DNA from: Minutocellus sp. GHC0000111
Taxonomy: Eukaryota
Direction: 5' to 3'
NCBI GenBank assembly: GCA_977018835.1
Contig: OZ361259.1
Span: forward strand, 744,001-808,000
DNA length: 64,000 nucleotides
The notes beneath the pieces are model-generated. The model was not told where the DNA came from, ran no database searches, and saw only the letters and a list, made by a program, of their open reading frames with translations. Positions 14,320 through 61,149 of the stretch are shown here, one piece after another (within the stretch, counting starts at the first letter, position 1; each line of letters starts with the position of its first letter). Made by a program: the position numbers and the translations under genes.

Positions 14320-14530
14320 GTGTTGCTCGTCATTTGTGGGACGACACTTGCAATGTTGCAGCAAGCCACAGGGCAAGGGATAGAAATTCCAAAAAGTTGC
14401 AGAACGTCTTTGGCAATGCAATTGCAGCCACCACGGTCATTTCCGCAACATTCAGAACTGGCTGAACAAGGTTCAAGGAGGCCTTTCGGGTTTGCACTTC
14501 CGGTTTTGACAATGCATTGGTCGCACTTCT
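14320..14530 (-). pseudogene. Fragment encoding a Cys-rich module (second copy ~31290-31510)
   Basis: CDQCIVK...EPCSASSECCGNDRGGCNC; same C..CC..CxC spacing as the modules at 19.9-20.4 kb. Confidence 0.45.
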
Positions 14531-14895
14531 GCTTCACCTGCCAGCTCCCCAAGCGCGTCGCCGTCGAGCAGCCCAACCTCTTTGCCGTCTTCTCACCAAG
14601 CTCGTTCCTGACCAGTCAGTGCTCCTTCGAGTGAGCCATCAGTGTCGTCTCAGCCAACGGCCGCTTCTTGCCTCCCATCCCCTGCCGGCAGGGTGGAATG
14701 ACTCGAACCCTAACCCTCAAAGAAAAAGCCGGCCAAGCCCAGCCAGGCCAAGTGGAAGAACTTCATGTGCACAAATGCTGCACGGCCGTTTGAATGCGAC
14801 CTCAACTCTCATTTTTCCATTCCAAGTGGTCTGTCCGTCCACCCGTTCCCCCACCCCCGGATGTGCATGGGTTTAAAATTTTAATAAAGATTCTT

Positions 14896-15013
14896 GAAAA
14901 GACTTTTTATTTCCATTTCAAACACCACACGACATAAAGACCCGAATGTACAATTTTTTAAACTTTTATTGAAGGTTCATGAAAAGACTTTTTATTTCCA
15001 TTTCAAACACCAC
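14896..15013 (+). repeat. 33-bp direct repeat upstream of the secreted gene (also ~31860-31984)
   Basis: GAAAAGACTTTTTATTTCCATTTCAAACACCAC at 14896 and 14981. Confidence 0.8.
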
Positions 15014-15040
15014 AGACTCGACATAATCACAATTATAAAG

Positions 15041-17080
15041 ATGGGGGTTGAGGTGGCACTTCTGTTCGCTGTTGGAATTTTGTTGTTTGCCGACGTCGCA
15101 CATGGAAATGAGAATCAGTGGGGATCTTTGAATCTCTTTGGAAAGAAGAACGGACTCAAAGGTGGCGCCCGTGACTTGTGGAGCACCGGCTACAGCTACA
15201 GCTCCACTGGAGGATCCAAGAGCAAGTCCACTGGAGGATCCGAGTCCAAGAGCAAGTCCAAGTCCACTGGAGGATCCAAGAGCAAGTCCACTGGAGGATC
15301 CACGTCCAAGAGCAAGTCCACTGGAGGATCCAAGAGCAAGTCCACTGGAGGATCCAAGAGCAAGTCCACTGGAGGATCCAAGTCCAAGAGCAAGTCTGGC
15401 TCGACTCCTGTCCCCCCGGCTCCCAAACCTGTCCCCCCGGCTCCCACTCCTGTCACCCCCAATGCAGAATGCCGTGACTACGACGATTTCGATCAAATTG
15501 TATTTAACTTCTACAATTTTGGATCTTTCCAGACCGACATCAATGCCCTTGGTTCAGTTGACCTAGATGTGTTTCAGGTTTCAATCTGCGCTGTGCTGGA
15601 GGAGATAGACCTACTGACTTCCATTGTGAGCTGCTGTACTTCTGCTGTGCTCATTGAAACAAGCAGACGGCACCTCCGGGCCAACAGTACAAACACCTCA
15701 AATACTACAAGTACTGTTGAATTCAGCACGAGCATAGTATACGAAGGAACAAGCTGTGAAGACGGAGATACATGTCAAGGTTCATTCGAGGATGCAATCA
15801 ACTCCGACTCATTCGGGAATCTGATCGGAGGCTCGGTGGTAGACCTTCAGCCACTGGGTACAAATCCACCTCCTACGATGGCCCCGCCGACTAATCCTCC
15901 TCCCGTCACCACCCCCGTCCCCCCGGTCCCCAGTACAAATCCACCTCCTACAATGGCCCCGCCGACTAATCCTCCTCCTGTCACCACCCCCGTCCCCCCG
16001 GCCCCCAGTACAAATCCACCTACAATGGCCCCGCCGACTAATCCTCCTCCCGTCACCACCCCCATCCCCCCGGCCCCCAGTACAAATCCACCTCCTACGT
16101 TGGCACCGCCGACTAATCCTCCTCCTGTCACCACCCCCGGCCCCCCGGCCCCCAGTACAAATCCACCTCCTACGATGGCACCGCCGACTAATCCTCCTCC
16201 TGTCACCACCCCCGGCCCCCCGGCCCCCAGTACAAATCCACCTACAATGGCCCCGCCGACTAATCCTCCTCCCGTCACCACCCCCATCCCCCCGGCCCCC
16301 AGTACAAATCCACCTCCTACGATGGCCGCCCCGCCCACTAATCCTCCTCCCGTCACCACCCCCGTCCCCCCGGCCCCCAGTACAAATCCACCTCCTACGT
16401 TGGCACCGCCGACTAATCCTCCTCCTGTCACCACCCCCGTCCCCCCGGCCCCCAGTACAAATCCACCTACCAAAGCCCCGTCTTCATTGCCTTCTCAATC
16501 TCCTTCCGATTTCCCGTCTTCATTGCCTTCTCAATCTCCTTCCGATTTCCCGTCTTCATTGCCTTCCGATGTCCCGTCTTCATTGCCTTCCGATGTCCCG
16601 TCTTCAATTCCGTCCGAGTCACCAAGTACATCATTTGCCCCAAGTACATCATTTGCCCCGACTTCGGGCCCTTGCCCTGCAGCTCCAGAAACGCTATTAG
16701 AGGATGACGGAGGAGATTTTGAATTTACCCAACGATTGCCAAGAGCTACTCTCAGTGTTGAACTGCGGATTTTTATCAGGGGTGATTACAATGGTTTAAA
16801 TGGAGGAACTGAAGAAGAATATGCCGATATCTTTTTGTTAAATAATACCTCTGGAGAAGCATCTCTTCCTCGCATCGGCAGATTCATTGGCTCACCACAG
16901 TGCAGTGAAGAATTCTTGGAGGAGTCGTATGTCATTCCTGTCGAAACATACAATGCATTTCACGAAGAAGGCAATGGCACAGTGTCCATCCTCATTGACG
17001 CTTCTGAAAACGTGGGGATCTTCTGCCCTCATAATGATGCCTACATTCAGTTTGAAATAGATGGTGGTTGTGGCCTTTAA
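15041..17080 (+). CDS. Secreted silaffin-/mucin-like protein (679 aa): signal peptide, RXL motif, (STGGSKSK)n, Cys-containing globular domain, (TNPPPTMAPP..)n, PSxxPS repeats, acidic C-terminal domain
   Basis: ATG at 15041 (ORF track starts at an upstream TTG); MGVEVALLFAVGILLFADVAHG signal peptide; ARDL and RRHL motifs; intronless open frame with normal Tyr content. Confidence 0.85.
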   Translation: MGVEVALLFAVGILLFADVAHGNENQWGSLNLFGKKNGLKGGARDLWSTGYSYSSTGGSKSKSTGGSESKSKSKSTGGSKSKSTGGSTSKSKSTGGSKSKSTGGSKSKSTGGSKSKSKSGSTPVPPAPKPVPPAPTPVTPNAECRDYDDFDQIVFNFYNFGSFQTDINALGSVDLDVFQVSICAVLEEIDLLTSIVSCCTSAVLIETSRRHLRANSTNTSNTTSTVEFSTSIVYEGTSCEDGDTCQGSFEDAINSDSFGNLIGGSVVDLQPLGTNPPPTMAPPTNPPPVTTPVPPVPSTNPPPTMAPPTNPPPVTTPVPPAPSTNPPTMAPPTNPPPVTTPIPPAPSTNPPPTLAPPTNPPPVTTPGPPAPSTNPPPTMAPPTNPPPVTTPGPPAPSTNPPTMAPPTNPPPVTTPIPPAPSTNPPPTMAAPPTNPPPVTTPVPPAPSTNPPPTLAPPTNPPPVTTPVPPAPSTNPPTKAPSSLPSQSPSDFPSSLPSQSPSDFPSSLPSDVPSSLPSDVPSSIPSESPSTSFAPSTSFAPTSGPCPAAPETLLEDDGGDFEFTQRLPRATLSVELRIFIRGDYNGLNGGTEEEYADIFLLNNTSGEASLPRIGRFIGSPQCSEEFLEESYVIPVETYNAFHEEGNGTVSILIDASENVGIFCPHNDAYIQFEIDGGCGL

Positions 17081-19616
17081 TTCTAACCCCAAGTTCATCG
17101 CCAAGGTAGATGCAAGAATTTTTATTGATTGGCTATCATGGTCATCAAGTTCCACAAAGAGTGAAATGGCAATGCAAAGGAATTGCTCTTTGAAATTGAA
17201 TACATAGCACAAAGATACACGAAAATGCTGTTGAACTATAACATAGCAAAGCTTCTCCAATTGCCTACTAGCACCAGACTCACTTAATAGAACGAACTGA
17301 AAGACAGATCTATGACGCACCACTTTCATCCCTTAAACAATCTGATGGATGTCTACTGTTCCCAAATTTGGCGAAGCAAACACCACAGAGTCACCTGCCT
17401 CGCACAGAGGTTGATGAGGCGCATCTTTACTTCTCTCCTTCATTCCTTTTTCAACAGAACGTGCAACTAAAGTAAGAACAATTGTGCAACTACGTGGCCA
17501 CACAAGCTAGATGCACTACAGAGAAAACATCAGCGCAGCAAGGAGTTCTTGCGCCATCAGTCCAGCTGATGCATTCCCCTCTGCCTCTCCTACAGCTCCT
17601 CTTCCACCCCCAGGTGGCATGAATGAAGCGCTGTCTGCTGCCCAGGGACCACCGCCCTGCTCTCTGTCTTCCCCAGGAAAGGTTGCCATTGCAGCCACCA
17701 CCTGTTCTATCTCAGTATCTCTTCTTGTGCCTTCCAGCAGTGGTTCTGTGCTGGGCCTTGTGCAGGCTTTGAGGGTTTTTAGAGTGTTCTTGCACAAGTC
17801 ACTGCTTCTTGTGGCAATTAGGATCATGCAGTTTTGGCTCTAGTTGGGAGCTGTCTGCTACCACATGTGCACATAGTCTGTGCACTTTAGGACATAGCTG
17901 TGCAATGTCACCAAAGGGTCCTGTGTTGTTTTCACATTGTTGCCACATGAATCACTTCCGGGTGTCCATTTTCAGAGTAATCTGAGTTGAGTGGGTCACA
18001 TGCAATTCTTCTGGAAGACAGAAGGACATGCATGTGCCTGTTGAACGAGTCACAGACCAATGTCGAGATCCTAGATCCCAACACCCCCCTCGAACCAAAT
18101 TCCACGGTGCTTCTCTTCGCAAGGTGTTCCTCGTTGATGCGACACTTCAGTTCTGTGTCGCTCGCTTTCAAGGGCGACAATCGCTACTCAAGTCATCTTG
18201 AGTCATCTGGTGGATGGGGTCACGACCTCCTCCATTTTGTCGCTCAATCCATCTTGATCGGCATCAGGGAAGTCCGATGGCTTATCTTGAGGGTCAAGTG
18301 GGTTGCTATCAGCTTGGTACTGGGCATTTTGCTTCGTGTAAAAGTGCGCACTGAACAATGGACCAAAGGACACTGTCATGGCAATAATAAGTAGAAAGAC
18401 ATGCCTACACTGAAGAACAGCAAATGTTGCCCTCCTAATCCTCTTTCTTTTCTTTTGCACAAAGAAACTTTGATTTCGGTCACTCCAGGGAGCTTTCATT
18501 CTTCTACCTGCAGTTTGGAAGCGGCAGGCAGTTTGCTCTGGTGTAGTAGGCCTAGCATAAATTTCTTCGCATCTGTATGTTTTCGAATCTTCGCATCGCT
18601 TTTGATTGCACATGATGAAAAGGTCGCTCTGTTCAGATTTTCCGTTCTTCTCGTCTTCTTTTTATTTTTGAAGCTTCTTGGATTCCCTATCCCACCCCTC
18701 CTTGCGATGTTGCTTGTAATTTGGGGGTGTTGACAAATTCGCGATATTTTCGATCTTTCAGTTTCAAGAAATGAGTTGTCCCATCTGGGTACATGTACAT
18801 AGGACATCCTAAGAGGGTGGTGCATTTCCTGCCCTTCTGAGGGTACATGTGTACATGTAGGACATCCTTCTAGGGTGCGGCACATCTCTTTACTACTACG
18901 TAGAAAGAACACACACATCAAAACCTGTGCCATTTTAGGACAGTGCAACGCCTGCACCTTTTTGGGCAGTGCTCCAACATCAAACCTACCGGCACTCCTC
19001 TAACAGGATAGAGTTATCAACTTCACCTACCTTCGCCTTGGGACTCAATCCCCACCCGGTGGATGAACGCTGGCATCTTGAAGTAGAAACGGTCATCGAT
19101 GTCCCTTTCCGCGTGACGGAGGTTGTGAGCTTTGTTGTCTCGGCTTTCTGGACAGACCACTGACTGACATAAACGTACAGTGCTCAGAGAACATGGTGAA
19201 GGTGGAGCTTCTCCGATTGCTTAGGAGTTCCCGAAGCCATGACACTATGACATTAATAGGTAGCATGCCAAAAAATTTTCCGCCGCCCAAAATCGAGGTG
19301 AAAAGTGGAAGAAAACTTTCATGGCCAGGATGACTGCCAGGAAGCGGGGGAAAGGGTGCGCTGGCCCGGCCAGATAGCAATCGCGATAGCCATTTGCAAC
19401 ATGTGTCTCATGTGCGTGAGTGCAATGTGCACACAGTGTGCAATTAATGAATTGTTTATTTCGATTTGATAAACGTTTACACGGCGATTCGTCATTTGTT
19501 TGCATTGAGTCGCCGCAGCAACCAAAGTACAAATGAAATAGCTCTTGAGTTCAGATGCTCAAAAAGTGAAATGACACAACAGCAAATGCATGAACATTTC
19601 CTTTGATTACATTTAG

Positions 19617-20450
19617 CTAAGCCAACACCAACACAATTGTTGAAGGCACCATTGACGGACTTTCTGAGGGAAACAGACTTGGCACATCTGATGGTGCAGC
19701 ACTTGGCACGTCCGAAGGAGATGTGGATGGTTCGGCACTGGGCAGCAAGCTCGGAACATCCGATGGTGCAGCACTTGGCACGTCCGAAGGAGATGTGGAT
19801 GGTTCGGCACTGGGCAGCAAGCTCGGAACATCCGATGGTGCCGTACTTGGTGCATCCGATGGTGAGGAACTTGGGATTTTGCTGGGAGCATCCGATGGTG
19901 TGACACTTGGTGCTAAGGATGGTGATTCTGAAGGTTTCACAACACAAGAGTTCAACGGGCACTCATTTGTGCAAACACCCATTGATCCTTGTGGACCCAC
20001 ACAGGCGCAGCCGGCACTGCCATTCATTGTGCTGCAACATTGGTTTGGCATGCCTGGGTCGCAAGGTTCACCCTCGAAAGGAAGACCTCCCGGCATGCGC
20101 ATGTGTTGACAAGACCCATGTTAAATATTGGTGCAGGTGTCGGGCGTGGAGTTGGTGCATCCGTGGGTGCCTTCGTGGGACTTTTGGTGGGAGAGACAGT
20201 TGGAGCAACAGGCGCAGTCGTGGGAAAACTTGTGGGAGAGCTTGTTGTGGGAGAAACCGTGGGAGAGTCTGTAGGAGCACCTGTCAAAGTGCCTGTGGGA
20301 GAATCCGTGGGAAATCCTGTGGGACTCTTGGTGGGAGATCCTGTGGGCGCCGGGGTTTCGGGGCTTACAACACACATGCCCTGTCCTGCATTTGCACAAA
20401 TGTTGTTAGTGCAGAAACATCCTCCGGACACGTTTCCGTCCATCATGAAA
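19617..20450 (-). pseudogene. Cys-rich + Pro/Thr/Ser-repeat extracellular protein, 5'-truncated and frameshifted
   Basis: Two overlapping frames (20024..20446, 19617..20102); PTxSPT and PSDVPS repeats; EPCDPGMPNQCC...GCAC module. Confidence 0.75.
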
Positions 20451-21583
20451 CAACTCAGTCTTGCATGTCAGTCTTGCATGTGCGTCCGACCCTTCGCCGC
20501 AGGACCAGGGCAACTCTTGGGATAAAGTGCACACAACAAAAATCTTTGTTCTTGCACTTGTGTTTGTGTAAAATAATTCCTTCTTTTTCAAACAAAACAA
20601 AAACACAGAAAACACAACAAAATTCGACGCAGAGGTGCCACTCGTTCCCTAATGTCAACGACGCTGGAACACAATCCAAGCTATGTAAACTTCTTACTTT
20701 TCTCTTTTCTTTTCCTCTTTTCCCGTGCTACTAGTGTTTGGCCCGTCGTCGCCTTGCTCGGACAAATCGCTGCTGCAAAACGTTTTAGCTTAGGAGTCTG
20801 TCGATGCCTCAGTTAGAGGGACGTTAAGCCAACATGCGAGCTGGGCTCAAGTCAAAGAATAGATCTCCTACCGAACAGACCCCATGGTTGGGGTAAGCAG
20901 GGACACTTTTAGGAGCTAACAAATGGACCTAAGGGAAATAAAAGAATCCATCTGAACCACTAAACCCCCACCTCGTTGTGCTTTGCATCCATCACACAAG
21001 CTTGCCATCGAATGTTCAAGTTCGACACTGTCAGATGTTCCGGAAGTTGCGTCGCTTCACGGTCTTAGGCTCGAGAACACTGCACAATGCGTGTGCTTGT
21101 TTCATCTAGAAATGCGCTGCTAGGGTTAACCTCAGCCCAGCCGGGTTCCCTCTGAGGGCGATTCGCAAGATCCATGTCGAGGAGAAGTCTTGTTTGCATT
21201 GAGTCGCCGGGTTCCCTCTGAGGGCGATTCACAAGATCCGATCAGGTGGGCTCAGTCGACGACGTGGTGGCATTTAAACCCTAAGGTCGCCAACCTTAGT
21301 GCCGTGCCCTAGCACCATGTCGAGGAGAAGTCATTGAGACAACCTCCTATCTCGACACTATGCCATCCCCCACAGGTGCAGTGTAACCTTTGAGCCTTAA
21401 GACCAGAGCCCTGTTGTCACGTTTCCAGCGGAGCCAACTGCCCCTTGTCTCGTAGGCCGAACATGGCAAAGTGATCACATCCGGGCCACATGCGAGGTCA
21501 GATTCGCGAGAAATCGAGCGCCCGGTTTTTGACTGCTTTCGAGGGGATTGAAAAGCGCCTCGAAGAATAGTCATGCTGAAATA

Positions 21584-24500
21584 CCAAGTGCGTGTCGATC
21601 TGGCGACGCCAGCGACGTTTTCGCCCAGAAATCGGAAAGTCCGAAGAAACACCTACAAAATCTCATTTCTCAGAATGTTTTCCACAATTTTTGTTTTGGA
21701 AAGACAGTTTTGTGCTACTCAAAAAACAAAAAAACAAAAAAACAAAATTTGCCTGAACTGGAGAACTATTTATTTGAGAATTCGAGTCAATAAGGCAAGT
21801 TTGATGCAAAGTTATGAATGTTACCGAGGTGTCGCACTACATGTAACTATCACCGTTAAAACTATCAACCTTTATGTACTTGTTGATATGTTCGCCGTGT
21901 TCGAGTCACTCGTGTAGGATGACACAGCACAGCTTCAGCATCAGCCATTTTTACCAGCAAACACACGAGGTTTGAGTTTTTACACGTACCAAATGCATCA
22001 AAGCAAGCTAGTGACATAATAAATCTAAGTAAAAATGTCAATCTAAGCTTTCTTGGAGCGAGGGGCGACACCGTCCTTGGTTGCGATGAAGTCGCCTCGG
22101 ACGTTTTGTCCTTGTTGGGCCGTTGGCTTACAACTTCGCAAGAGCTCGTTGCCGCCGCCATTTTCTTCCACTCTTTCTAGAATTCGTTTCGCCAACACGC
22201 ATCCATGAGCGACTTTTTCCGATGTCAAATCGCTCCATGTGTCTTGGCATCGCTTCCATGTTGCATCGTTGTTTCCGATGGCCTTCTCCCCGCCCTCCTT
22301 CAGCAAATGAGAGTGGATTTTAGACATGCAGGGGAAGACGGCCAAGTCAAGATTGTTCGAGCAGGGCATCTGCGCAGCCTGGGGCTCCCAATGCCAATGG
22401 CTCCTTATCTGGCATTGCTCCTTGCACCATGCTTGGAAATTGCCCTCGCGGTGAGGACCGGCATTGTCGCCTTGAACAACTATGCCACAGTTCTGGTGCT
22501 TTCCACAGAGACTTGGATCAGCGATGGGCGGGGAATTGTTTTCAGGATCAGCCTCGCATCGTTGCTTTTCTCCTCCTGATGCTTTTCTTTGTCACCACAA
22601 GCAGCGGGAGGACCAACTAACTTCTCTAAAAGAGGGATAATTTGATGTTCAAATGTCTCTCGAAGAGAAAAGCTAGGATTAGTCGAAGTCCCGCTACTTG
22701 CACCCTTCACCGTAGCATCAACCATGCAGGGCCCACCCTTCTCACGAATCAGCTCTCCATCGTAGCGCTGCCGACCCTAATCGTCCTTCCGACCAGCACG
22801 CTGATTCTTCTGCGCCATTCGGCCTGCCATGCATCGATGCAGACCAAGCATCAAGCCGTCGCCGCCATCCTCGATGTTACCGCCACAATCACACCCAGTG
22901 AACGCAACCACCACAATCTTCGGAATGTGGCACTCATGCTGACAAAAATTCATTGGGTGATGAAGGCCCAGAGCCTCGCAGATTTTGTTGTTGCGCCTTC
23001 CGACGTGCCCATGGAACCACTTTTCATCGTAATGCACAAGAACAGCAGGCTCGGCTTCTCTCCCCCAGCCATTGAGGAAATGCTTCACAAATCGGACATG
23101 CTCGGCCATCTGAGCTGTTGTGAGCAAAGGCAACATTGCTTCTGCACCGCATGTAGCTCCACAATGCGAAGCAAACCACCGATCAATCGTCCTTGCACTG
23201 CACCAACCGTCAATGTCATCTGCAACATCCTGCCAACTTTTGGACTGATCCTTGAGAAGCATTGCAATGGTCTCATCTCGAATTCCAGGCTGTCTAGCGA
23301 TGGCCGACCGAGAAAGAAAGTTGAATGGCTCTTTGTTGTCGGCGGTGAGGTGTTGGAACTTTTCGCGCGCCATCTTCCTTGTGTCTCCCTGCGCAGATGA
23401 GTCCAAGAGGTAGCAATTCTCAGCGGCCTCCGCCGATGCCTTCTGTAGCAAGTGCTCTCCATAAAAATACACTGGAGTGCACATCGAGCGCGCATGATCA
23501 TGGTCTTCGATCACAGAAAGAAATTTGACCCTCTTCGCTCCGGGCTCCTCCCCTCTTTCCTTTCTCTTTCGCTTCTTGCTTTCCTTCTTCGCCTCTGCTC
23601 TTCGCTCGGCCTTCTGTGGCATCATGAGGCGATCGTACGCATCTTTGGGGTGGTGCCGCTCAACTCCATGTGCGTGGGCGAGATTCACCATTGCGAGGGG
23701 ATCTTTCGTCGCTGGAAGGGTTGCCATTCCAAGGGTCTTGCGCATGGCAGCAGCAGATGCCACAGCACCACAGTCCACAGCAATTGCAGTGTCAAAATCA
23801 GGGTCGTCCCTTGATAGGCCCATGCTGTCAGCTCTCCATCCTCTGCAAAGATTCATTCCACCATTCTTTTTCATGAGCTCAGTTACAATCTGACCTCCGT
23901 CTTTCCGGCACTGCCGTTTCGCCGGCGGACTAGAGGCCGTTCCCCCATCGTCTTTGTCATCTCCTAATGCATCTTGGCGAGTCCTTTTGATAGCTGCACG
24001 AGCTGGGGGGTTGTGGATGATTGGAGCAGAAGATGTGGCTGATCGAATTCGAGTGAGGCGGAAAAGGGGAACATCATGCTCAAATTTCTGGGCTGCGATG
24101 GCGTCATGCTGCACATCCACCGTCAGCTTCCCACCGGAGCCTTTCACATGGGTAACGATTCCATCACCGCCGGGAGAATTCTTGCATGGGCTGTAGTCTG
24201 ATGAAACCCTCACGGCATCGCCTTTTTGGAGGAGGGGTTTGCCCGACACACAGTTGCTCGTCTTCTTCCCCTTCGGCGGTGCAGTGATGGAAGTGACGGT
24301 GCCTCTTTGTTTTGCATGCTCCTTCCTTTCATGTTCAAGGCATGTGCGCTTGTTCTCGCGCTCTTTCTCCGCCGCGACCTGCGCCTTCTTGGCCGCCTTC
24401 TTCGCAATGTCTTCGGCTGCCTTCGCTTTCTCGGCATCCAATTGTTGGGATCGCTGCACTTGCGCCGGTGCTGGCGACGACGATGGATGAGAGGACGCAT

Positions 24501-24841
24501 CAGTCGATGTGCCAGTCGGCGGAGAAGGCGGAGAACGAGCAGGAGACACAATGGCCAGGCGAGTCGATGGCGTTCGAGTCACGTTCGACGAGGGTGAGGT
24601 GTTGGCATTGTTTGATTGCGATGCGGCCCGTGCAGACGTTGTTGGACGGCGGGATGAACGAGCGTTGTTGGAGGCTGCTGGCGACCGAAAATGCGTGGGA
24701 GGCCATGGGAGGAGATCACCCCTGGACAAATGCATGTCAGCAAGGTTTTTGTCGCTGAGATTGGTCGTGTTGTTTGTGTCGGCCACGAACTCCTGTTTTT
24801 TCGCGAAACTCGCTGGCGTCGCCAGATCGACACGCACTTGG
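21584..24841 (-). mobile_element. Inner mariner-like DNA transposon (3258 bp)
   Basis: Perfect 32-bp TIRs CCAAGTGCGTGTCGATCTGGCGACGCCAGCGA; flanked by TA (21582-83) and CA (24842-43); empty site at 58683-84. Confidence 0.93.
22043..24735 (-). pseudogene. Mariner-like DDD transposase with long N-terminal extension, frameshifted
   Basis: VHYDEKWF, VQGDNAGPH and QMPCSNNLDLAVFPCMSK motifs split across frames. Confidence 0.85.
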
Positions 24842-24937
24842 CATTTAAGAAAGTGGCTGTTTTTACTCTAATTTTGATTTGTCTTCATGTGAAACAATAA
24901 TTCGGATAAGACTTTAGATTTCAGCGGCTCTAATCAA

Positions 24938-26143
24938 ATGGACGCGTTCGTCGCACAGAGGAGATCTCATCTGGCTGTGCAGCCATGCATTCGAGATGTT
25001 ATTGTTGATGCTCTGATGCGAAATCCTCGGGAATCTTGGCGGGAGCTGGAGGTGGATGTCATCTTTTGGTGTTCCTGCTCGGCAATGCGGCGGTGGATGA
25101 CGTCGCGGGAAGGGTTCCGGTGCTGTGCCGAAAGGATCATCCCTCTCCTTGCTGCACATCAGATGGAGAAACATTTGGCATTTGCGCGGAAATTCCGAAA
25201 CAATTGGGGGCTCGGCGGTGGCAAGTTTTCCCTTGTCATGTTCGATGAGAAGTGGTTTTGGGGCTTGGTTCTTCGATCGCATGCCAAGCAAGTTGCAGAA
25301 TTGGGCATTGATCCTCGGTCCTTCTCGGCATGTCACCGAAATCACATCAACAAGTGCATGGTGGTGGCTGTCACTGCCTTGGCTTTTATTGACAGCATTG
25401 AGAATGGCGGCATTGCGTTCAAGCTTGGACTTTTTCGGGCTCAGGCGCATAAAATTGCGAGGCAGATGGCAAGGGAAGCGGTGCGGCAGGCAGATGGCAG
25501 AATCAAACATTGCGGCCCGGTGGTTCGGAAGAAAGACGATCTGTGCCTTGTGGATTGCGCGGTGACTGGATGCAGCCATGGCACCCTTGATAATCCCAAG
25601 TTCCCACTGTTTGATAACAAGATGTTTCCGGATGTTGAGGCTTTGGTCGGACCTGGCGGAAAGTTTGAAGGCCATGTCCCTGTTTTCCAGGGCGACAGTG
25701 CTGGGCCCCATGCCGAGACTGAATTTGTGGAACATGTGGAAGGATGCTGTCGGGACAAGGGATGGCGTTGGGAACCTCAGGCCCCGCAAATGCCCCATAT
25801 GAATGTTCTTGATCTGTCTGTTTTCCCTTGCATGTCAAAGCAGCATGCAATGTTGTGCCGCGATCGGGAGGGGCTGAAGGTTTTGACAGAGGATCAGACT
25901 TGGGATGCAGCGGAGGAAGTTTGGATGGGGCTGGAAAACTGGAAGATCGCATCGGCATGCATCCAGGCTCATAGAATTGCAAAGAAGGTAATCGTTGCAA
26001 AAGGCAACAATGATTTTCTTGGAAACGGTGAAGGCATTCATGTTGGGGTGCGAAAGGATTTCAGGCTGACTGAAAATGGCATGGTTCGGACAGATGGGAA
26101 AATTATCGCTCCTCCTCCTGCTGATCCAACCATGGATAATTAG
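24938..26143 (+). pseudogene. Mariner-like transposase catalytic region (DD38D spacing, plant DD39D-like motifs), hypermutated and 5'-deleted
   Basis: FDEKWF...QGDSAGPH...PQMPHMNVLDLSVF; no Tyr in 401 aa. Confidence 0.88.
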
Positions 26144-27146
26144 TCCTGCGGTGCTTTTAAGTTATATTGTGTTTAATAATGCTAGATTGGATTGTAGATC
26201 TGGATGCTAGCTGCTGCAACACATGCACTTTGCATTGTGCATGTGTTCAATGCCGGTAGATCTAAGATTCAGGCGGTTGCGGGCCCAAAAAGTCGCTGTT
26301 TTGGTCCCGACCCTGTGCTCGATTTCTCGCGAAACAGACTTCATAGGCATCATCGGCAACGAAAAAAAAGCCCGATCAAGCGGCAAAACGAGCTGTGCAA
26401 TCCTACACCGACGGCTTCCAAAGTCAAGTGAGCATCAGTCTTGCATGTGCGTCCGACCCTTCGCCGCAGGACCAGGGTAACTCTTGGGATAAAGTGCACA
26501 CAACAACAATCTTTGTTCTTGCACTTGTGTTTGTGTAAAATAATTCCTTTTTTTTTCAAACAAAACAAAAACACAGAAAATACAATAAAATTCGACGCAG
26601 AGGTGCCACTCGTTCCCTAATGTCAACGACGCTGGAATCCAATCCAAGCTATGTAAACTTTTTACTTTTCTCTTTTCTTTTCCTATGCTATGTGTTCTGA
26701 AACTGAAAGATCGAAAATATCGCGAATTTGTCAACACCCCCAAATTACAAGCAATATCGCAAGGAGGGGTGGGATAGGGAATCCAAGAAGCTTCAAAAAT
26801 AAAAAGAAGACGAGAAGAACGGAAAATCTGAACAGAGCGACCTTTTCATCATGTGCAATCAAAAGCGATGCGAAGATTCGAAAACATACAGATACGAAGA
26901 AATTTATACTAGGCCTACTACACCAGAGCAAACTGCCTGCCGCTTCCAAACTGCAGGTAGAAGAATGAAAGTTCCCTGGAGTGACCGAAATCAAAGTTTC
27001 ATTGTGCAAAAGAAAAGAAAGAGGATTAGGAGGGCAACATTTGCTGTTCTTCAGTGTAGGCATATCTTTCTAATAATTATTGCCATGACAGTGTCCTTTG
27101 GTCCATTGTTCAGTACATACTTTTATACGAAGCAAAATGCCCACTT

Positions 27147-28336
27147 TCATGTCGATGGAATCATTTTCGCGTCTCGGAAGGAAGAGTTCCATTGAGGCGG
27201 ATGAATGTGCGCCGCTTCCATTCTTTTGTTTCTTTCTCCCAAGTTGACCTCCATTTGTTTATGCCAAGAATCGGTTTCCCAAGCGCATTGCAAACATTGC
27301 GCTACGTTTCCTTGTCCAAATGGGCAGGCTTTGCAGAAATGCAAGCTGCGAGATATTTGCTCTGAAAAACGCTGATTTTGTCGATTGTGGCCGTTCCTGT
27401 GTTCTTTGATAGTGCCATCGACATTGCAACGAGCTTTCCATAGACATTTCTGTCCAGCCATGACTTCTTATTCAGCTCAAATGCACCAGCAATAATGCCC
27501 AGCGGCGGATACAGGGTGTCCTCAGCAAAGCCAAAAACGTCTTGAAACATGTGCCAGGCATCATCCTGGTCAGTCATGGTGTCAATGTACAAATGAGAAG
27601 AAACAAAGTAAGGCATTCTTGGTTTGCCTCCCTTCTCGTCTCTGGGGGATCTATACCAGTAATGCGTCACAGTCTCTTGTTGCTCTTACAACGAAGCGAT
27701 TGTGCCAGAATCCTCCCAACGGACAATCTTAGGTGACGCGAGACTCATGTTGGAAATCATTGATTGAAGATCCCTCTCGAACTCATCTGTATCTACTACA
27801 TTTCTTCCTGCTTCCAGGAAACACGGCCTACTCAACTTCATCTCATCACCTCCAAGATGGATAAAGGGACTTGTATGGAATATTTCTTCCAGCTCACCCA
27901 ATGAAGTTTCAAGGATAGACATTATGCCTGCGTTTTGATGGTTGAGAGGAATGCCCCATGCCTCCTCGCAGAAGTATTTTGGGCAATTTACAATAAGACC
28001 AGGGATGCCGGACCACCCCCCTGCATGGCCCGGAATATTTAATTCTGGCATTATGAAAACTCTCCTTTCGGTGGCAAACCCGACGAGGTGCTTCATTTCT
28101 TCCACGGAATATACACTGCCACCTGGAACAGAAGGTACTGCTAGTTCAGGATAGGAATCAAACTTCAACACGAATGATTGATCATCAGTCAACCTGAGAT
28201 GTAGCAGATTGAAACCAAGCTTCGCAATGAAGTCAACAATATCCTTCAAGTCTGAAATGGAAAAATACACACGAGCAGCATCCACAAGTACCCCAGCATA
28301 TCGAACACGATGCTCTGGCAATTTCCTTCCCGGCAC
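27147..28336 (-). pseudogene. GH20 beta-N-acetylhexosaminidase, in-frame stop at 27686
   Basis: GVLVDAARVYF, LHLRLTDDQSF, PELNIPGH, catalytic HLGGDE; frame continues past the TAA into 27302..27670. Confidence 0.85.
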
Positions 28337-29311
28337 AAACGACCTCCACTACACATCGTCGACCGATTCATCCAACTTGTCCGATCACAGGGAATCCCAT
28401 TTCTCTGTGCATTCATATGAGGATAAAGGGCTTACCCTGTCAGCAGACTTTGTAAGACTATTCGCGAAGGCTAGCGTCATTCTGGAAGGTACCCACGGTG
28501 ACAACCCACGAACAATGGCAAGGCGGATCGACCGCACCGAACGATCGGTGGTGTAATCCGAACAGCACTGATAGGAGCGGGCCTACCCAATGCACTCTGG
28601 GACGTAGCAGCAGTTCATCTAGCCAATGTTCACATTGAGACTTGGCATTCAGGATCCAAGAACATTCCACTCAGAGCTTGGAACAAAGCCATGTTGAGGT
28701 AGAGATAAATTTGATTGCCAGTCGCGACAAAAACCTTTACGCAGGAATAATTCATAATGCACATGCCGAGCAGAGGTTCGATTCTATCTACTGTATCCCA
28801 CTCATCATGAATTTTGGCAGAGAGAGAGAGAGATTCCTGTCTATCCTGTGCCTCTCAACGTTTCTGTTCCAAAGAAACCGAAAAGCAAAAACAAAAAAGT
28901 GCCTAAGGAAAAATCAATATTCGACCAGCCAGTGAGACCACGGAGAGCTCGACTGTACACACGATACGGCTTCTGCTTTTCGTGCGTTTTTCTTTTCTAT
29001 TTCTGATTTCTTCTGAACAGCAAAGGTCTTGGGTAAGTAGTCCACAACTAAGTTTACTGTTCGTGCTTTGTCTCAACAAGATACGCATTGTTTTACTAGT
29101 GTGCTTTTGCTTGCTGCGTTCTATTCTACTCTTCGACCACAGAGGTACTTGAGGTAGTGAATGTGGTAGTGAATTTGACCGTTTACTATCGCCGGGACCA
29201 ACCACTAGCTCGCTAGGCCTACCACCTGATGATGATTACTCGCCTAGTTTATTGGGCTTGAGTTCCCTAATCTCTAAATGTAAAATCCGCTGTAGCAATT
29301 GTCCGAATAAA

Positions 29312-29827
29312 TCAACCGAACATAGAATCAGAAATCGTCGTTTGACGGAATTTGTACTTTGCATACGTGCCGGATGCTAATCCTAGTTGATGCTCCACTA
29401 TTTCAGCCCATAGAACTGGGTCTCTGGCAGCTGGCATCCATTTGCTGAGGTCGTTTGCTCTAGATCCGAATCCTAGTTTCTCTAGAGTGTCACGGTATCC
29501 ATGTCGAATTGTAACTTTGGCTTTGCCACGTCGTCTAGATTTTCCATGGCAGAAGGCTCCAAATAACTTTCTAGGCAATCTGTTATCTCCCATGTTTGCT
29601 TGCAACCTTCTCTAACCATCTGCATCTCCTTAGTTCTAGATTGGTTTCCATCGTGCATATGTAGGCACTAAGAGCTTCAGCTCTAACATCTTCATTTGTG
29701 ACTTTACCTTCCCGGTAGAAGTCATGCCCGACGATTTGATGGAGGCAGTTGTGGTGCACAGACTCTAGCTTTTTGATCAGTGATGGTTTGAGCGCCCAGC
29801 TTTCGAATCCCCACAGCACTGTGTTGA
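29312..29827 (-). mobile_element. Non-LTR retrotransposon (RTE-like) 3' fragment cut by the duplication junction
   Basis: VLWGFESWAL, RRCRWL, RLPRKL post-RT motifs; matches 45301-45816. Confidence 0.75.
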
Positions 29828-30357
29828 ATTTCCTACTGCTACTCGTAGGTAGACTAGCTAGTTTGTTCATATAAATCTGTTTCCAAGAAAAGTCACATCA
29901 TCCAATTGACCTTAGGTCTACCAGTATTTTCCCCAAGATTGTGGTACTCTCTGGTGTTGAGGGTTCACAATTCAATCTTTGTGGCGCCACCATTTTTCTG
30001 GAAAGCAATTTTGGAGAGCTCTTGTGTGTGGGCATGGCTATGGTCGGTGTGGCCCCCATCCTCCCTCCATCTGGTTCCTTTGCCAGGCACCATTCTCATG
30101 CAAAGTGCATGTTTTACAAAAGATTTATGCTGACCTGTCAAATCACCTGCACCGTCAGCACACAGTGTTTATCGCATGCTAAAAAGCGAAGCAGGGGTCT
30201 GTCAAGCACGTGGTCAAGAGAGGGAAGTTAAGTCAAACCATTGCATGGGCGGCGGCACCTGAGGCGCTGAGCGGAGTAAGGCGCCATCGTCATCAGACCT
30301 GGCTATTGCACAGAGCGCTAAATATCGATAGCTACTAACACTGATGGCCATAGCGCA

Positions 30358-30543
30358 ATGACACTCTACTTGTCCTGCCTCTCCTCGCCGCTCATTCTGC
30401 TGCTGCTTTTGACCACACCATCGCACGCTGCCATGCCAGGCGATGGGCGGCGCAGTAGCGGCACCACTGCCACCGCCAGACCGCTCATCCTCCGGCTGCA
30501 CATGGTCCGTCATGGAGAGACCGAGGCCAACAAGGCCAGCTAG
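30358..30543 (+). pseudogene. N-terminal fragment of a histidine phosphatase (PGAM-like)
   Basis: Hydrophobic leader, then RLHMVRHGETEAN (RHG motif), stop immediately after. Confidence 0.65.
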
Positions 30544-37454: not shown

Positions 37455-40400
37455 CGAGGTCAGATTCGCGAGAAATCGAGCGCCCGGTTTTTGACTGCTT
37501 TCGAGGGGATTGAAAAGCGCCTCGAAGAATAGTCATGCTGAAATACCAAGTGCGTGTCGATCTGGCGACGCCAGCGACGTTTTCGCCCAGAAATCGGAAA
37601 GTCCGAAGAAACACCTACAAAATCTCATTTCTCAGAATGTTTTCCATAATTTTTGTTTTGGAACGACAGTTTTGTGCTACTCAAAAAACAAAAAAATAAA
37701 ATTTGCCTGAACTGGAGAACTATTTATTTGAGAATTCGAGTCAATAAGGCAAGTTTGATGCAAAGTTATGAATGTTACCGAGGTGTCGCACTACATGTAA
37801 CTATCACCGTTAAAACTATCAACCTTTATGTGCTTGTTGATATGTTCGCCGTGTTCGAGTCACTCGTGTAGGATGACACAGCACAGCTTCAGCATCAGCC
37901 ATTTTTACCAGCAATCACACGAGGTTTGAGTTTTTACACGTACCAAATGCATCAAAGCAAGCTAGTGACATAATAAATCTAAGTAAAAATGTCAATCTAA
38001 GCTTTCTTGGAGCGAGGGGCGACACCGTCCTTGGTTGCGATGAAGTCGCCTCGGACGTTTTGTCCTGGACGTTTTGTCCTTGTTGGGCCGTTGGCTTGCA
38101 ACTTCGCAAGAACTCGTTGCCGCCGCCATTTTCTTCCACTCTTTCTAGAATTCGTTTCGCCAACACGCATCCATGAGCGACTTTTTCCGATGTCAAATCG
38201 CTCCATGTGTCTTGGCATCGCTTCCATATTGCATCGTTGTTTCCGATGGCCTTCTCCCCGCCCTCCTTCAGCAAATGAGAGTGGATTTTAGACATGCAGG
38301 GGAAGACGGCCAAGTCAAGATTGTTCGAGCAGGGCATCTGAGCAGCCTGGGGCTCCCAATGCCAATGGCTCCTTATCTGGCATTGCTCCTTGCACCATGC
38401 TTGGAAATTGCCCTCGCGGTGAGGACCGGCGTTGTCACCTTGAACAACTACGCCACAGTTCTGGCACTTTCCATAGAGACTTGGATCAGCGATGGGCGGG
38501 GAATTGTTTTCAGGATCAGCCTCGCATCGTTGCTTTTCTCCTCCTGATGCTTTTCTTTGTCACCACAAGCAGCGGGAGGACCAACTAACTTCTCTAAAAG
38601 AGGGATAATTTGATGTTCAAATGTCTCTCGAAGAGAAAAGCTAGGATTAGTCGAAGTCCCGCTACTTGCACCCTTCACCTCAGCATCAACCATGCAGGGC
38701 CCACCCTTCTCACGAATCAGCTCTCCATCGCAGCGCTGCCGACCCTAATCGTCCTTCCGACCAGCACGCTGATTCTTCTGCGCCATTCGGCCTGCCATGC
38801 ATCGATGCAGACCAAGCATCAAGCCGTCGCCGCCATCCTCGATGTTGCCGCCATAAGCACACCCAGTGAACGCAACCACCACAATCTTCGGAATGTGGCA
38901 CTTGTGCTGACAAAAATTCATTGGGTGATGAAGGCCCAGAGCCTCGCAGATTTTGTTGTTGCGCCTTCCGACGCACCCATGGAACCACTTTTCATCGCAA
39001 TGCACAAGAACAGCAGGCTCGGCTTCTCTCCCCCAGCCATTGAGGAAATGCTTCACAAATCGGACATGCTCGGCCATCTGAGCTGTTGAGCAAAGGCAAC
39101 ATTGCTTCTGCACCGCATGTAGCTCCACAATGCGAAGCAAACCACCGATCAATCGTCCTTGCACTGCACCAACCGTCAATGTCATCTGCAACATCCTGCC
39201 AACTTTTGGACTGATCCTTGAGAAGCATTGCAATAATCTCATCTCGAATTCCAGGCTGTCTAGCGATGGCCGACCGAGAAAGAAAGTTGAATGGCTCTTT
39301 GTTGTCGGCGGCAAGGTGTTGGAACTTTTCGCGCCATCTTCCTTGTGTCTCCCTGCGCAGATGAGTCCAAGAGGTAGCAATTCTCAGCGGCCTCCGCCGA
39401 TGCCTTCTGTAGCAAGTGCTCTCCATAAAAATACACTGGAGTGCACATCGAGCGCGCATGATCATGGTCTTCGATCACAGAAAGAAATTTGACCCTCTTC
39501 GCTCCGGGCTCCTCCCCTCTTTCCTTTCTCTTTCGCTTCTTGCTTTCCTTCTTCGCCTCTGCTCTTCGCTCGGCCTTCTGTGGCATCATGAGGCGATCGT
39601 ACGCATCTTTGGGGTGGTGCCGCTCAACTCCATGTGCGTGGGCGAGATTCACCATTGCGAGGGGATCTTTCGTCGCTGGAAGGGTTGCCATTCCAAGGGT
39701 CTTGCGCATGGCAGCAGCAGATGCCACAGCACCACAGTCCACAGCAATTGCAGTGTCAAAATCAGGGTCATCCCTTGATAGGCCCATGCTGTCAGCTCTC
39801 CATCCTCTGCAAAGATTCATTCCACCATTCTTTTTCATGAGCTCAGTTACAATCTGACCTCCGTCTTTCCGGCACTGCCGTTTCGCCGGCGGACTAGAGG
39901 CCGTTCCCCCATCGTCTTTGTCATCTCCTAATGCATCTTGGCGAGTCCTTTTGATAGCTGCACGAGCTGGGGGGTTGTGGATGATTGGAGCAGAAGATGT
40001 GGCTGATCGAATTCGAGTGAGGCGGAAAAGGGGAACATCATGCTCAAATTTCTGGGCTGCGATGGCGTCATGCTGCACATCCACCGTCAGCTTCCCACCG
40101 GAGCCTTTCACATCGGCAACGATTCCATCACCGCCGGGAGAATTCTTGCATGGGCTGTAGTCTGATGAAACCCTCACGGCATCGCCTTTTTGGAGGAGGG
40201 GTTTGCCCGACACACAGTTGCTCGTCTTCTTCCCCTTCGGCGGCGTAGTGATGGAAGTGACGGTGCCTCTTTGTTTTGCATGCTCCTTCCTTTCATGTTC
40301 AAGGCATGTGCGCTTGTTCTCGCGCTCTTTCTCCGCCGCGACCTGCGCCTTCTTGGCCGCCTTCTTCGCAATGTCTTCGGCTGCCTTCGCTTTCTCGGCA

Positions 40401-42307
40401 TCCAATTGTTGGGATCGCTGCACTTGCGCCGGTGCTGGCGACGACGATGGATGAGAGGACGCATCAGTCGATGTGCCAGTCGGCGGAGAAGGCGGAGAAC
40501 GAGCAGGAGACACAATGGCCAGGCGAGTCGATGGCGTTCGAGTCACGTTCGACGAGGGTGAGGTGTTGGCATTGTTTGATTGCGATGCGGCCCGTGCAGA
40601 CGTTGTTGGACGGCGGGATGAACGAGCGTTGTTGGAGGCTGCTGGCGACCGAAAATGCGTGGGAGGCCATGGGAGGAGATCACCCCTGGACAAATGCATG
40701 TCTGCAAGGTTTTTGTCGCTGAGATTGGTCGTGTTGTTTGTGTCGGCCACGAACTCCTGTTTTTTCGCGAAACTCGCTGGCGTCGCCAGATCGACACGCA
40801 CTTGGCATTTAAGAAAGTGGCTGTTTTTACTCTAATTTTGATTTGTCTTCATGTGAAACAATAATTCGGATAAGACTTTAGATTTCAGCGGCTCTAATCA
40901 AATGGACGCGTTCGTCGCACAGAGGAGATCTCATCTGGCTGTGCAGCCATGCATTCGAGATGTTATTGTTGATGCTCTGATGCGAAATCCTCGGGAATCT
41001 TGGCGGGAGCTGGAGGTGGATGTCATCTTTTGGTGTTCCTGCTCGGCAATGCGGCGGTGGATGACGTCGCGGGAAGGGTTCCGGTGCTGTGCCGAAAGGA
41101 TCATCCCTCTCCTTGCTGCACATCAGATGGAGAAACATTTGGCATTTGCGCGGAAATTCCGAAACAATTGGGGGCTCGGCGGTGGCAAGTTTTCCCTTGT
41201 CATGTTCGATGAGAAGTGGTTTTGGGGCTTGGTTCTTCGATCGCATGCCAAGCAAGTTGCAGAATTGGGCATTGATCCTCGGTCCTTCTCGGCATGTCAC
41301 CGAAATCACATCAACAAGTGCATGGTGGTGGCTGTCACTGCCTTGGCTTTTATTGACAGCATTGAGAATGGCGGCATTGCGTTCAAGCTTGGACTTTTTC
41401 GGGCTCAGGCGCATAAAATTGCGAGGCAGATGGCAAGGGAAGCGGTGCGGCAGGCAGATGGCAGAATCAAACATTGCGGCCCGGTGGTTCGGAAGAAAGA
41501 CGATCTGTGCCTTGTGGATTGCGCGGTGACTGGATGCAGCCATGGCACCCTTGATAATCCCAAGTTCCCACTGTTTGATAACAAGATGTTTCCGGATGTT
41601 GAGGCTTTGGTCGGACCTGGCGGAAAGTTTGAAGGCCATGTCCCTGTTTTCCAGGGCGACAGTGCTGGGCCCCATGCCGAGACTGAATTTGTGGAACATG
41701 TGGAAGGATGCTGTCGGGACAAGGGATGGCGTTGGGAACCTCAGGCCCCGCAAATGCCCCATATGAATGTTCTTGATCTGTCTGTTTTCCCTTGCATGTC
41801 AAAGCAGCATGCAATGTTGTGCCGCGATCGGGAGGGGCTGAAGGTTTTGACAGAGGATCAGACTTGGGATGCAGCGGAGGAAGTTTGGATGGGGCTGGAA
41901 AACTGGAAGATCGCATCGGCATGCATCCAGGCTCATAGAATTGCAAAGAAGGTAATCGTTGCAAAAGGCAACAATGATTTTCTTGGAAACGGTGAAGGCA
42001 TTCATGTTGGGGTGCGAAAGGATTTCAGGCTGACTGAAAATGGCATGGTTCGGACAGATGGGAAAATTATCGCTCCTCCTCCTGCTGATCCAACCATGGA
42101 TAATTAGTCCTGCGGTGCTTTTAAGTTATATTGTGTTTAATAATGCTAGATTGGATTGTAGATCTGGATGCTAGCTGCTGCAACACATGCACTTTGCATT
42201 GTGCATGTGTTCAATGCCGGTAGATCTAAGATTCAGGCGGTTGCGGGCCCAAAAAGTCGCTGTTTTGGTCCCGACCCTGTGCTCGATTTCTCGCGAAACA
42301 GACTTCA
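37455..42307 (+). mobile_element. Outer mariner-like element, copy B (transposase remnant 40902..42107)
   Basis: Same TIRs and identical 401-aa ORF as copy A. Confidence 0.75.
37546..40805 (-). mobile_element. Inner mariner-like transposon, copy B, with extra frameshifts
   Basis: Same 32-bp TIRs; TA/CA flanks. Confidence 0.93.
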
Positions 42308-58593: not shown

Positions 58594-59851
58594 CGAGGTC
58601 AGATTCGCGAGAAATCGAGCTCCCGGTTTTTGACTGCTTTCGAGGGGATTGAAAAGCGCCTCGAAGAATGGTCATGCTGAAACATTTAAGAAAATGGCTA
58701 TTTTTACTCTAATTTTGATTTGTCTTCATGTGAAACAATAATTCGGATAAGACTTTAGATTTCAGCGGCTCTAATCAAATGGACGCGTTCGTCGCACTTG
58801 GACCGGCATGCTGCTTCCCAACGAGTGCCGATGATTCATCTGATTCGGCCGCCTTCCGTTCTGTCACATCGACGATCTTGCAACGGCGACCCGGCGGCAT
58901 GCTGCACCATGTCTCTTTGCAATTGCCAAGTGCAGGGAGCAGGCAAAGGTGGACTGTTCGGTGCTGTCCAGCGCACAGAGCATGGTGCACGATTTTCGGG
59001 ATGGATGAAGGCGCATGGTGCTCTGCCTGCATCTGAGAAGGCGATGTGGGAGATGAAGAGGAGATCTCATCTGGCTGTGCAGCCACACATTCGAGATGTT
59101 GTTGTTGATGCTCTGACACGAAATCCTCGGGAATCTTGGCGGGAGCTGGAGGTGGATGTCATCTTTTGGTGTTCCTGCTCGGCAACACGGCGGTGGATGA
59201 TGTCGCGGGAAGGGTTCCCCGGCACTGTGCCGAAAGGATCATCCCTCTCCTTGCTACACATCAGATGGAGAAACATTTGGCATTTGCGCGGAAATTCCGA
59301 AACAATTGGGGGCTCGGCGGTGGCAAGTTTCTCCTTGTTGTGTTCGATGAGAAGTGGTTTTGGGGCTTGGTTCTTCGATCGCATGCCAAGCAAGTTGCAG
59401 AATTGGGCATTGATCCTCGGTCCTTCTCGGCATGTCACCGAAATCACATCAAGGAGTGCATGGTGGTGGCTGTCACTGCCTTGGCTTTTATTGACAGCAT
59501 TGAGAATGGCGGCATTGCGTTCAAGCTTGGACTTTTTCGGGCTCAGGTGCACAAAATTGCGAGGCAGATGGCAAGGGAGGCGGTGCGGCAGGCAGATGGC
59601 AGAACCAAATGTTGCGGCCCGGTGGTTCGGAAGAAAGACGATCTACACCTTGTGGATTGCGCGGTGACTGGATGCAGCCATGGCACCCTTGATAATCCCA
59701 AGTTCCCACTGAAAGCTTTGTTTGAGAACAAGATGTTTCCGGATGTTGAGGCTTTGGTCGGACCTGGCGGAAAGTTTGAAGGCCATGTCCCTGTTTTCCA
59801 GGGCGACAATGCTGGGCCCCATGCCGAGACTGAATTTGTGGAACATGTGGA
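58594..59851 (+). mobile_element. Outer mariner-like element, copy C, 3'-truncated, no nested insertion
   Basis: Left TIR present; FDEKWF and QGDNAGPH motifs; ends at an inverted copy of ~17364-17578. Confidence 0.8.
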
Positions 59852-60094
59852 GGGAATGCATCAGCTGGACTGATGGCGCAAGAACTCCTTGCTGCGCTGA
59901 TGTTTTCTCTGTAGTGCATCTAGCTTGTGTGGCCACCGTAGTTGCACAATTGTTCTTACTTTAGTTGCATGTTCAACTTGAAAAAGGAATGAAGGAGAGA
60001 AGTAAAGATTCGCCTCATCAACCTCTGTGCCAGGCAGGTGACTCTGTGGTGTTCGCTTCGCCAAATTCCAACTGTTCTGCCTTCGTGAATACAA

Positions 60095-60990: not shown

Positions 60991-61149
60991 CAAAATCATT
61001 AAATTCATAAAGGGAAACACTTTAATTTGATTCTTTCTCTTAAATTCATTAAATTCATAAAGGGAAACACTTTAATTTGATCAGAAAAGGTGCAATATGT
61101 ACTAGTATTAACACGGGAGCTGCCGTTATCTGATCGGACACCACACAAA

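Follow-up and report, generated by a model that had tools for sequence, protein, structure and literature searches.

Directional TpA hypermutation of nested Tc1/mariner-type transposon copies in Minutocellus sp. GHC0000111

How does a transposase gene come to lack every tyrosine codon when the genes around it keep theirs? The question is raised by a stretch of 64,000 nucleotides of Minutocellus sp. GHC0000111 (assembly GCA_977018835.1, contig OZ361259.1, positions 744,001 to 808,000 of the forward strand; hereafter the window, numbered from its first letter), in which a nested DNA transposon at 21493-26343 carries a transposase open reading frame (ORF) of 401 aa with 0 Tyr, 16 Cys and 16 His. 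A preliminary description of the locus had proposed a DNA-level mutator that turns TpA into TpG/CpA on both strands of transposon copies and acts far less on genes, and both its counts and this proposal hold up in what follows. The ORF contains 11 TA dinucleotides against 69 expected from base composition, 2000 shuffles never gave fewer than 50, and CpG remains plentiful, with a CG observed/expected ratio (o/e) of 0.75. TTA/TAA is the context of 9 of the 11 TA that survive, and the TA at 25615 was newly made by a G>T change. The polarised counts given below establish a real directional TpA hypermutation of transposon copies, of a kind that has been described once before. The locus is composed of the following features.

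21493..26343, plus strand: outer Tc1/mariner-type DNA transposon with a DD38D transposase, a hypermutated copy, identified by the empty-site joint, the inverted repeats, PF01498 in homologs and the Asp triad.
21491..21492, unstranded: outer left target-site duplication, reading TG (mutated TA); the right copy is TA.
26344..26345, unstranded: outer right target-site duplication, unmutated TA.
21494..21526, plus strand: outer left terminal inverted repeat, 33 nt, 82% complementary to 26310-26342.
26310..26342, minus strand: outer right terminal inverted repeat.
24938..26143, plus strand: ORF of the outer transposase, 401 aa with 0 Tyr, in which a 709-bp internal deletion at 24951-24957 has joined the flanking parts.
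21584..24841, minus strand: inner Tc1/mariner-type element, inverted inside the outer one, with its own terminal inverted repeats of ~32 bp, hypermutated.
21582..21583, unstranded: inner left target-site duplication, unmutated TA.
24842..24843, unstranded: inner right target-site duplication, reading CA (mutated TA).
22046..24459, minus strand: gene of the inner transposase, with 92% identity to P0199 (804 aa).
37455..42307, plus strand: second copy of the nested element, in a 10.6-kb segmental duplication.
58594..59855, plus strand: third, partial copy, which shares the insertion flank but lacks the inner element.

The ends of the outer element, 21493 and 26343, are exact, as an empty-site contig links 21488 to 26344 and the inverted repeats agree; the interval reported earlier is therefore correct, but it holds two nested elements. 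Likewise, the Tyr-free 401-aa ORF exists as described but is a deletion-fused product, the family protein (P0001, 574 aa, in a cluster of 146 members, 91% identical to the window ORF) being longer. At all 12 of the 12 aligned family Tyr positions the window has Cys or His, and the inner transposase has exchanged 23 of its 30 Tyr in the same way; the inner gene also runs into one premature stop, near 22777, and shifts frame near 22567. The inner element is absent from contigs of the sequencing runs X4, X2 and X7, which join 21582 to 24843, as it is from the third window copy. Contig depths in the sequencing runs hint at many outer and fewer inner copies, although depths are not copy numbers. 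The TA target-site duplications, with one TA mutated in each pair, together with short terminal inverted repeats, the DEKWF, GDNAGPH and NVLDL triad motifs and PF01498, are those of Tc1/mariner (IS630-Tc1-mariner) elements. PF01498, the N-terminal helix-turn-helix, exceeded the cut-off in P0010 (38 bits) but not in P0001 (28.1) or the window ORF (17.6), and Pfam gave no PF01498 in the inner transposase protein. The triad of the outer transposase is D103/D253/D292; its motifs are what we take to be plant-mariner/DD39D-like, but the 38 residues between the second and third Asp differ from that group. Cylindrotheca closterium is the sole species-named source of transposase relatives (3 of 86).

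The direction of change was determined by comparing the majority allele of the family, in contigs of runs X1, X4, X2 and X7, with the window over 21300-26500; runs with small word shares were left out. Differences of the C>T plus G>A type accounted for 101 of 121 places in X1, 98 of 117 in X4, 98 of 122 in X2 and 94 of 114 in X7, with the two strands in balance (G>A 53, C>T 48). Among the 40 of 129 difference rows that were listed, 34 were C>T or G>A, and 33 of these 34 restore TA in the family allele, against a background of 31%. Homologs carry Tyr at the window's Cys/His sites (at position 203 in 64 of 78, at position 246 in 57 of 76), and of the 17 converted sites the outgroup L001, with 81% identity, reads TA at 11, CA at 4, TG at 1 and TC at 1, so the lack of TA and Tyr at these sites is not one that the family and its relatives share. 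Tc1/mariner transposases insert at TA. Since the target-site duplications read TG...TA around the outer element and TA...CA around the inner one, with one end of each mutated, mutation came after insertion. The same TA has also been resolved differently in different copies, with 7 swaps between TG and CA in 788 bp of copies 1 and 3 and 4 in 3338 bp of copies 1 and 2; at the 12 sites altered in both copies 1 and 3, however, 9 agree and 3 are swapped, and thus some mutation may predate duplication. On these comparisons the conversion ran from TA to TG/CA, and it took place after insertion and after duplication. In the left flank (21340-21488), three positions (21340, 21356 and 21379) read CA in the insertion allele but TA in the empty-site allele of run X1; three TA retained in the empty allele against 0 in the reverse sense are too few to establish a spread into the flank of the insertion allele. 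The empty allele's own target reads TG-TA, so that the site was mutated on the empty allele too.

These data bear on two other origins of the pattern. ADAR-type editing fixed by reverse transcription, which the preliminary description had already dismissed, is ruled out by a cut-and-paste element, by the equal use of both strands and by the mutated target-site duplications. An old copy under neutral decay, misread CpG decay or a base-calling artefact could draw on the under-representation of TA window-wide (o/e about 0.4-0.6), yet homologs and outgroup have Tyr and TA, just 6 other changes occur in 961 bp, and two duplicates have the same TG/CA pattern across 1501 bp. The window alleles also recur as minority contigs in other runs, including the Illumina run X7 at 25280/25332, which makes a base-calling artefact unlikely. 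We regard decay or artefact as very improbable in general, and at this locus the polarised counts refute it.

In order to define the specificity of the mutation, we used 25130-26170, where the differences are fully listed (n=23), and counted over 25170-26130 (961 bp) to spare edge loss. Seventeen of the 24 TA were converted, 8 to TG and 9 to CA. By 5' neighbour, A>G occurred at 17/48 TA, 1/155 AA, 0/152 CA and 1/125 GA, a family-based, context-specific spectrum of the kind that had been called for and that agrees with a TpA mutator. CpG was altered at 1 of 44 sites against 17 of 24 for TpA (P=1e-9), and with 6 remaining changes the comparison is 71% of TA sites against 0.6% elsewhere. Neither CG->TG/CA nor CA->TA dominates, and decay of CpG driven by 5-methylcytosine is rejected as the main cause, a minor component being present. 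The rare exceptions are CpG decay at 22483, 23087 and 26067 and AA>AG at 22144 and 25698. It is these exceptions that error-prone repair synthesis could claim, in which a Pol eta-like polymerase working on methylated transposon DNA leaves A>G at A in WA motifs (W being A or T), motifs in which Pol eta is recorded to mutate A in the accessible part of one report (PMC2213188). Against this, AA was changed at 1/155 compared with 17/48 for TA (P=3e-11), transversions are scarce, and the CpG loss that would trigger repair is just 1/44; we consider such repair improbable. One adjacent double change, CT>TC (Leu>Ser) at 25229-25230, lies outside the TA rule, and copy 3 retains the family state there.

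The base 3' of the adenine also matters: conversion was 8/9 before C, 7/26 before T, 1/7 before A and 1/6 before G, with TAC differing from TAT at P=0.002, and the TAC strand was used at 14 of 18 ATAC/GTAT sites (P=0.03, hand count). The preliminary description had named RTAY (R, purine; Y, pyrimidine) as the preferred target. Conversion at RTAY was indeed 10/11 compared with 7/13 in other contexts, but at P=0.08, and a strand-level preference for TAC fits the counts better. A plain TAY rule was also considered and is not established, with 17 against 7 asymmetric sites (P=0.064) and P=0.10 for TAY against TAR in the complete stretch. No strand clustering was found among the 17 converted sites (9 runs, 9.5 expected). 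When TA>TG/CA was enumerated over codon pairs (2560 cases), 0 stops were created and 384 removed.

The size of the loss is smaller than base composition suggests. Over the 961 bp, TA o/e is 0.40 in the family majority allele and 0.14 in the window; the family allele is itself TA-poor, and the true loss is thus about 3-fold and not the ~6-fold given earlier, base composition overstating it. TA is low throughout the window, with o/e of about 0.4-0.6 in genes and 0.37-0.64 in six neighbouring gene-like ORFs. Sliding ratios nevertheless separate the element from the genes as predicted: in 500-bp bins, RTAY o/e is 0.00-0.37 over 19001-26500 and mostly 0.5-1.2 in gene stretches (27001-28500 and 50501-53000). 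The neighbouring genes do retain Tyr and TA, the GH20, mucin-like and P450-like ORFs having 5-14 Tyr each, but their names have fared less well, the 'P450' being only an Atlas lead (0.87) with no Pfam match at E 0.01 and the 'silaffin-like' ORF having no Pfam match. One gene served as a TA-keeping control.

27686..28348, minus strand: GH20 gene segment, TA o/e 0.55, with 12 RTAY against 12.2 expected.

When paralogs within the window were compared, with gap-adjacent events excluded, TA-type events made up 34 of 61 in transposon paralogs and 8 of 54 in gene or gene-flank paralogs (P=6e-6), so that TA depletion is not equal in the two classes. The action is therefore local with genes largely spared, in one window where a host-like fragment is also TA-poor (see below).

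We sought to establish whether all copies of a family are affected alike. Proteins were clustered at 90% identity, with at most 15 members listed per cluster (15 of 146 for the outer family, 15 of 40 for the inner), and both the clustering and gene calling bias which copies appear. In 8 clusters on long ENA contigs, with 403 differences, there were 31 Y>C, 35 Y>H and 2 other losses of Tyr, and 3 changes in reverse. Ten of the 15 listed outer members lost no Tyr and 4 lost 1-3, while P0095 lost 11 of 13 and none was left in P0083, P0086 or the window. Among inner members, 14 of 20 Tyr are gone from P0204, whose 547 residues hold 26 changes of TA type and 1 of another type; P0212 lost 3 of 6, and the other 13 lost 0-1. 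Tyr loss is overdispersed in both families (chi2 101 for the outer and 99 for the inner, each with 14 degrees of freedom). The load thus appears switch-like between copies, most of those listed being nearly untouched and a few having lost 70-100% of their Tyr, which suggests that single copies are hit in bursts. Changes of other types are slightly higher in the heavily hit outer copies (1.0-2.4% compared with 0-1.9%), so age plays some part.

Within the window, copy 2 differs from copy 1 over the first 3.3 kb by 14 TA versus TG/CA differences and 4 TG/CA swaps among 32 events, and over the last 1.5 kb by 0 differences; copy 3 differs from copy 1 by 7 swaps and 4 TA versus TG/CA differences among 22 events. 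The direct duplication that holds copies 1 and 2 (19222-29827 and 35192-45816) has 98.5% identity; only one difference falls in 24740-28991 and about 70 in the rest, which suggests conversion or unequal exchange. The signature likely reaches 1 kb beyond the element as well.

19617..20467, minus strand: host-like PT-repeat gene fragment, TA o/e 0.18, 0 Tyr.

This fragment has 2 TG/CA swap sites among its three window copies, and no unmutated reference was found for it. Being TA-poor, Tyr-free and marked by swaps, it makes the target resemble a domain and not the element alone, and the mutation likely extends beyond the transposon into host-like sequence.

A trigger like that of repeat-induced point mutation (RIP), whereby repeat pairing marks any duplicate for TA mutation, would agree with the observations that every polarisable affected stretch is a repeat and that the swaps indicate mutation after duplication. 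The copies argue otherwise: ten tandem units of a host gene in the window (~1.3 kb, each with 38 TA) show differences in 4 columns, none of them TA>TG/CA, although recent origin or homogenisation of the array may hide an effect; most listed members of the 40- and 146-member clusters are nearly untouched; and the target in Bigelowiella natans is single copy (10.64898/2026.01.13.699255, in the portion available). We consider pairing a little less probable even than the repair synthesis discussed above. The tandem unit and its dispersed paralog are identical over 457 bp, without TA-type differences.

In ascomycetes, RIP changes C to T, turning mainly CpA into TpA, on both strands and creates stops; it is set off by sequence duplication, most strongly at tandem repeats, acts before meiosis and involves the RID/DIM-2 methyltransferases. 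The name 'reverse-RIP' given to the locus is apt in that, in both processes, transposon copies collect transitions at high density, on both strands and at specific dinucleotides. It misleads in other respects, as the change here runs in the opposite direction (TA>TG/CA) and never makes stops, and the tandem host repeats show no TA-type differences, with the reservation on the age of the array made above.

The preliminary description knew of no such system, but TpA-only hypermutation has been reported in B. natans (Mettrop et al., bioRxiv 10.64898/2026.01.13.699255). According to the accessible portion of this preprint, two viral inserts carried 231 mutations, 230 of which were A>G/T>C, all at TpA, at a rate ~1000-fold above background and in a subset of lines only; the targets were integrated DNA of nucleocytoplasmic large DNA viruses (NCLDV) and virophages, DDE and reverse-transcriptase domains were enriched in TA-poor genes, and ADAT2 was proposed, not proven, as the enzyme. 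That portion of the text contains neither 'diatom' nor 'trinucleotide', and we found no diatom report of TpA hypermutation in the open-licence PMC and bioRxiv literature; PMC7884421 deals with fungal RIP and has no bearing on it. Both systems share near-exclusive A>G/T>C transitions confined to TpA (here the 33 of 34 listed changes, and 8 TG with 9 CA), on both strands, acting locally on foreign or mobile DNA and unevenly across lines or copies. The present locus differs in that it lies in a probable diatom and that multicopy DNA transposons are polarised against their own family, with 70-100% conversion in some copies, and in the TAC preference and the likely spread into a host-like fragment; in addition, the available part of the preprint measures de novo rates, whereas ours is a relative excess (71% against 0.6%).

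In light of these data, we propose that TpA is converted to TpG/CpA on both strands by a putative TadA/ADAT-type host DNA adenine deaminase that would be recruited to individual silenced loci, a reading to which we assign a probability of roughly 0.55. The features that this enzyme would have to explain, as read from the comparisons above, are the direction, the strict TpA specificity, the use of both strands, the timing after insertion and duplication, the uneven load and the relative sparing of genes. Adenine would be deaminated to inosine and then copied as G; the palindromic TA would be hit once, on either strand, with a product that is no further substrate; and targeting would follow the locus or chromatin state and not repeat pairing. 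Repeated rounds would wear down codons for Tyr, Ile, Thr and Val together with signals that contain TA, disabling the element, and as the change makes no stops and removes them, any defence would work through missense and regulatory erosion. An adenine deaminase is favoured by the TAC context, which resembles the preference of TadA-derived editors; these are most active after T, least after A and better before C in the accessible part of one account (PMC8989541). They too act on DNA to give A>G, but they are engineered and far less strict.

Several observations weigh against this reading. A>G and T>C on the paired strand are indistinguishable from sequence, the TAY against TAR comparison given above is non-significant and the context counts come from 24 sites only, and the gene controls are under selection, which makes them imperfect. 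None of the catalytic aspartates has been hit, and the lesions that break the two window elements are of other than the TA type. A natural A-to-I DNA deaminase, amphioxus ADAT2 (of ADAT2/3), likewise makes A>G on DNA but prefers GAA and hairpin loops, unlike the TpA here, in the part of the report available (PMC10354150). As to generality, Y>C/H was missing from 8 of the 9 clusters of proteins that came from other sources, three C. closterium copies had none, and none of 33 metagenome loci was as TA-poor as the window (0.39-0.82 compared with 0.16); the signature-free metagenome loci and other-source clusters are probably collapsed assemblies that say little either way. P0216, in the cluster of P0002 (a 66% identical family), has 7 Tyr>Cys/His with I>V, I>M, T>A and S>G on one short contig, possibly the same process in another organism.

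The main rival to adenine deamination is a modification of thymine, in which an enzyme marks T in 5'-GTA/RTA of silenced DNA and the marked base, 5-hydroxymethyluracil or a more oxidised form for instance, mispairs with G and gives T>C. By sequence logic an identical double-stranded spectrum is expected. Hydroxymethyluracil has been linked to transposons. It is abundant in dinoflagellates according to the accessible text of one preprint (10.1101/2024.10.28.620566), but among the papers listed on hydroxymethyluracil and transposable elements none describes it in diatoms, and the mark would have to be very mutagenic to give 71% conversion of sites against 0.6% elsewhere. We hold it to be unlikely, while placing it above the other alternatives. 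A mutagenic adenine modification other than deamination, made by a TpA adenine methylase or oxidase that marks silenced DNA, would suit the strict dinucleotide context and the locus specificity; eukaryotic N6-methyladenine, however, sits at ApT within genes that are active, shows no enrichment on transposons, has limited mutagenicity and was not found in P. tricornutum, as far as the same partial source goes (10.1101/2024.10.28.620566). This modification seems to us about as improbable as repair synthesis.

Returning to the deaminase, a wider proposal can be offered only tentatively, at less than even odds: diatoms would carry a natural, chromatin-targeted, TA(C)-strict DNA adenine deaminase that acts in bursts at single silenced loci, is the same system as in Bigelowiella, and represents an old defence of Stramenopiles and Rhizaria and a natural A-to-G editor. 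Rhizaria and Stramenopiles both belong to the SAR (Stramenopiles, Alveolata and Rhizaria) group. The locus adds polarised counts against a live family, a TAC preference and evidence for burst-like hits on single copies, and it adds DNA transposons and a second major algal lineage to the range of a mutator described so far for a single species, in a single preprint. Cultured, transformable diatoms would make the enzyme findable, and the families provide an internal time series, Tyr-codon conversion ranging from 0% to 100% among copies that are nearly identical, in which one can ask what marks a locus. If true, such a natural editor with TA specificity for adenine in DNA would add a new class to the eukaryotic mutators and could interest the base-editing field. 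For annotation, stops are removed and never made, so that dead elements pass as intact Tyr-free genes and ages based on divergence are inflated.

Elsewhere in the window, positions 1-14112 hold the tandem array of at least 10 near-identical units of 1.26-1.35 kb, encoding a Ser/Lys/Pro-rich protein, with its dispersed paralog at 63033-64000. Further RTAY-poor blocks lie at 14001-15500, 17001-18500, 30001-32500, 48001-50500, 54001-56000 and 60501-61000, some of which overlap low-complexity parts of genes. Pfam on 20 ORFs elsewhere in the window gave nothing except one PT repeat, and the RTAY-poor blocks have no Pfam match. An intron-split ORF with a Ser/Lys-rich N-terminus lies at 61150-62800 and is the source of the weak P450 lead. 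The GH20 segment has one species-named relative among 28, which belongs to the diatom Fragilaria crotonensis and, with the C. closterium transposase relatives, makes a diatom host probable. Two copies of a long Pro/Thr/Ser-rich, mucin- or silaffin-like gene are present at 14969-17077 and 31940-34573, and its repeat parts hold RTAY at or above expectation.

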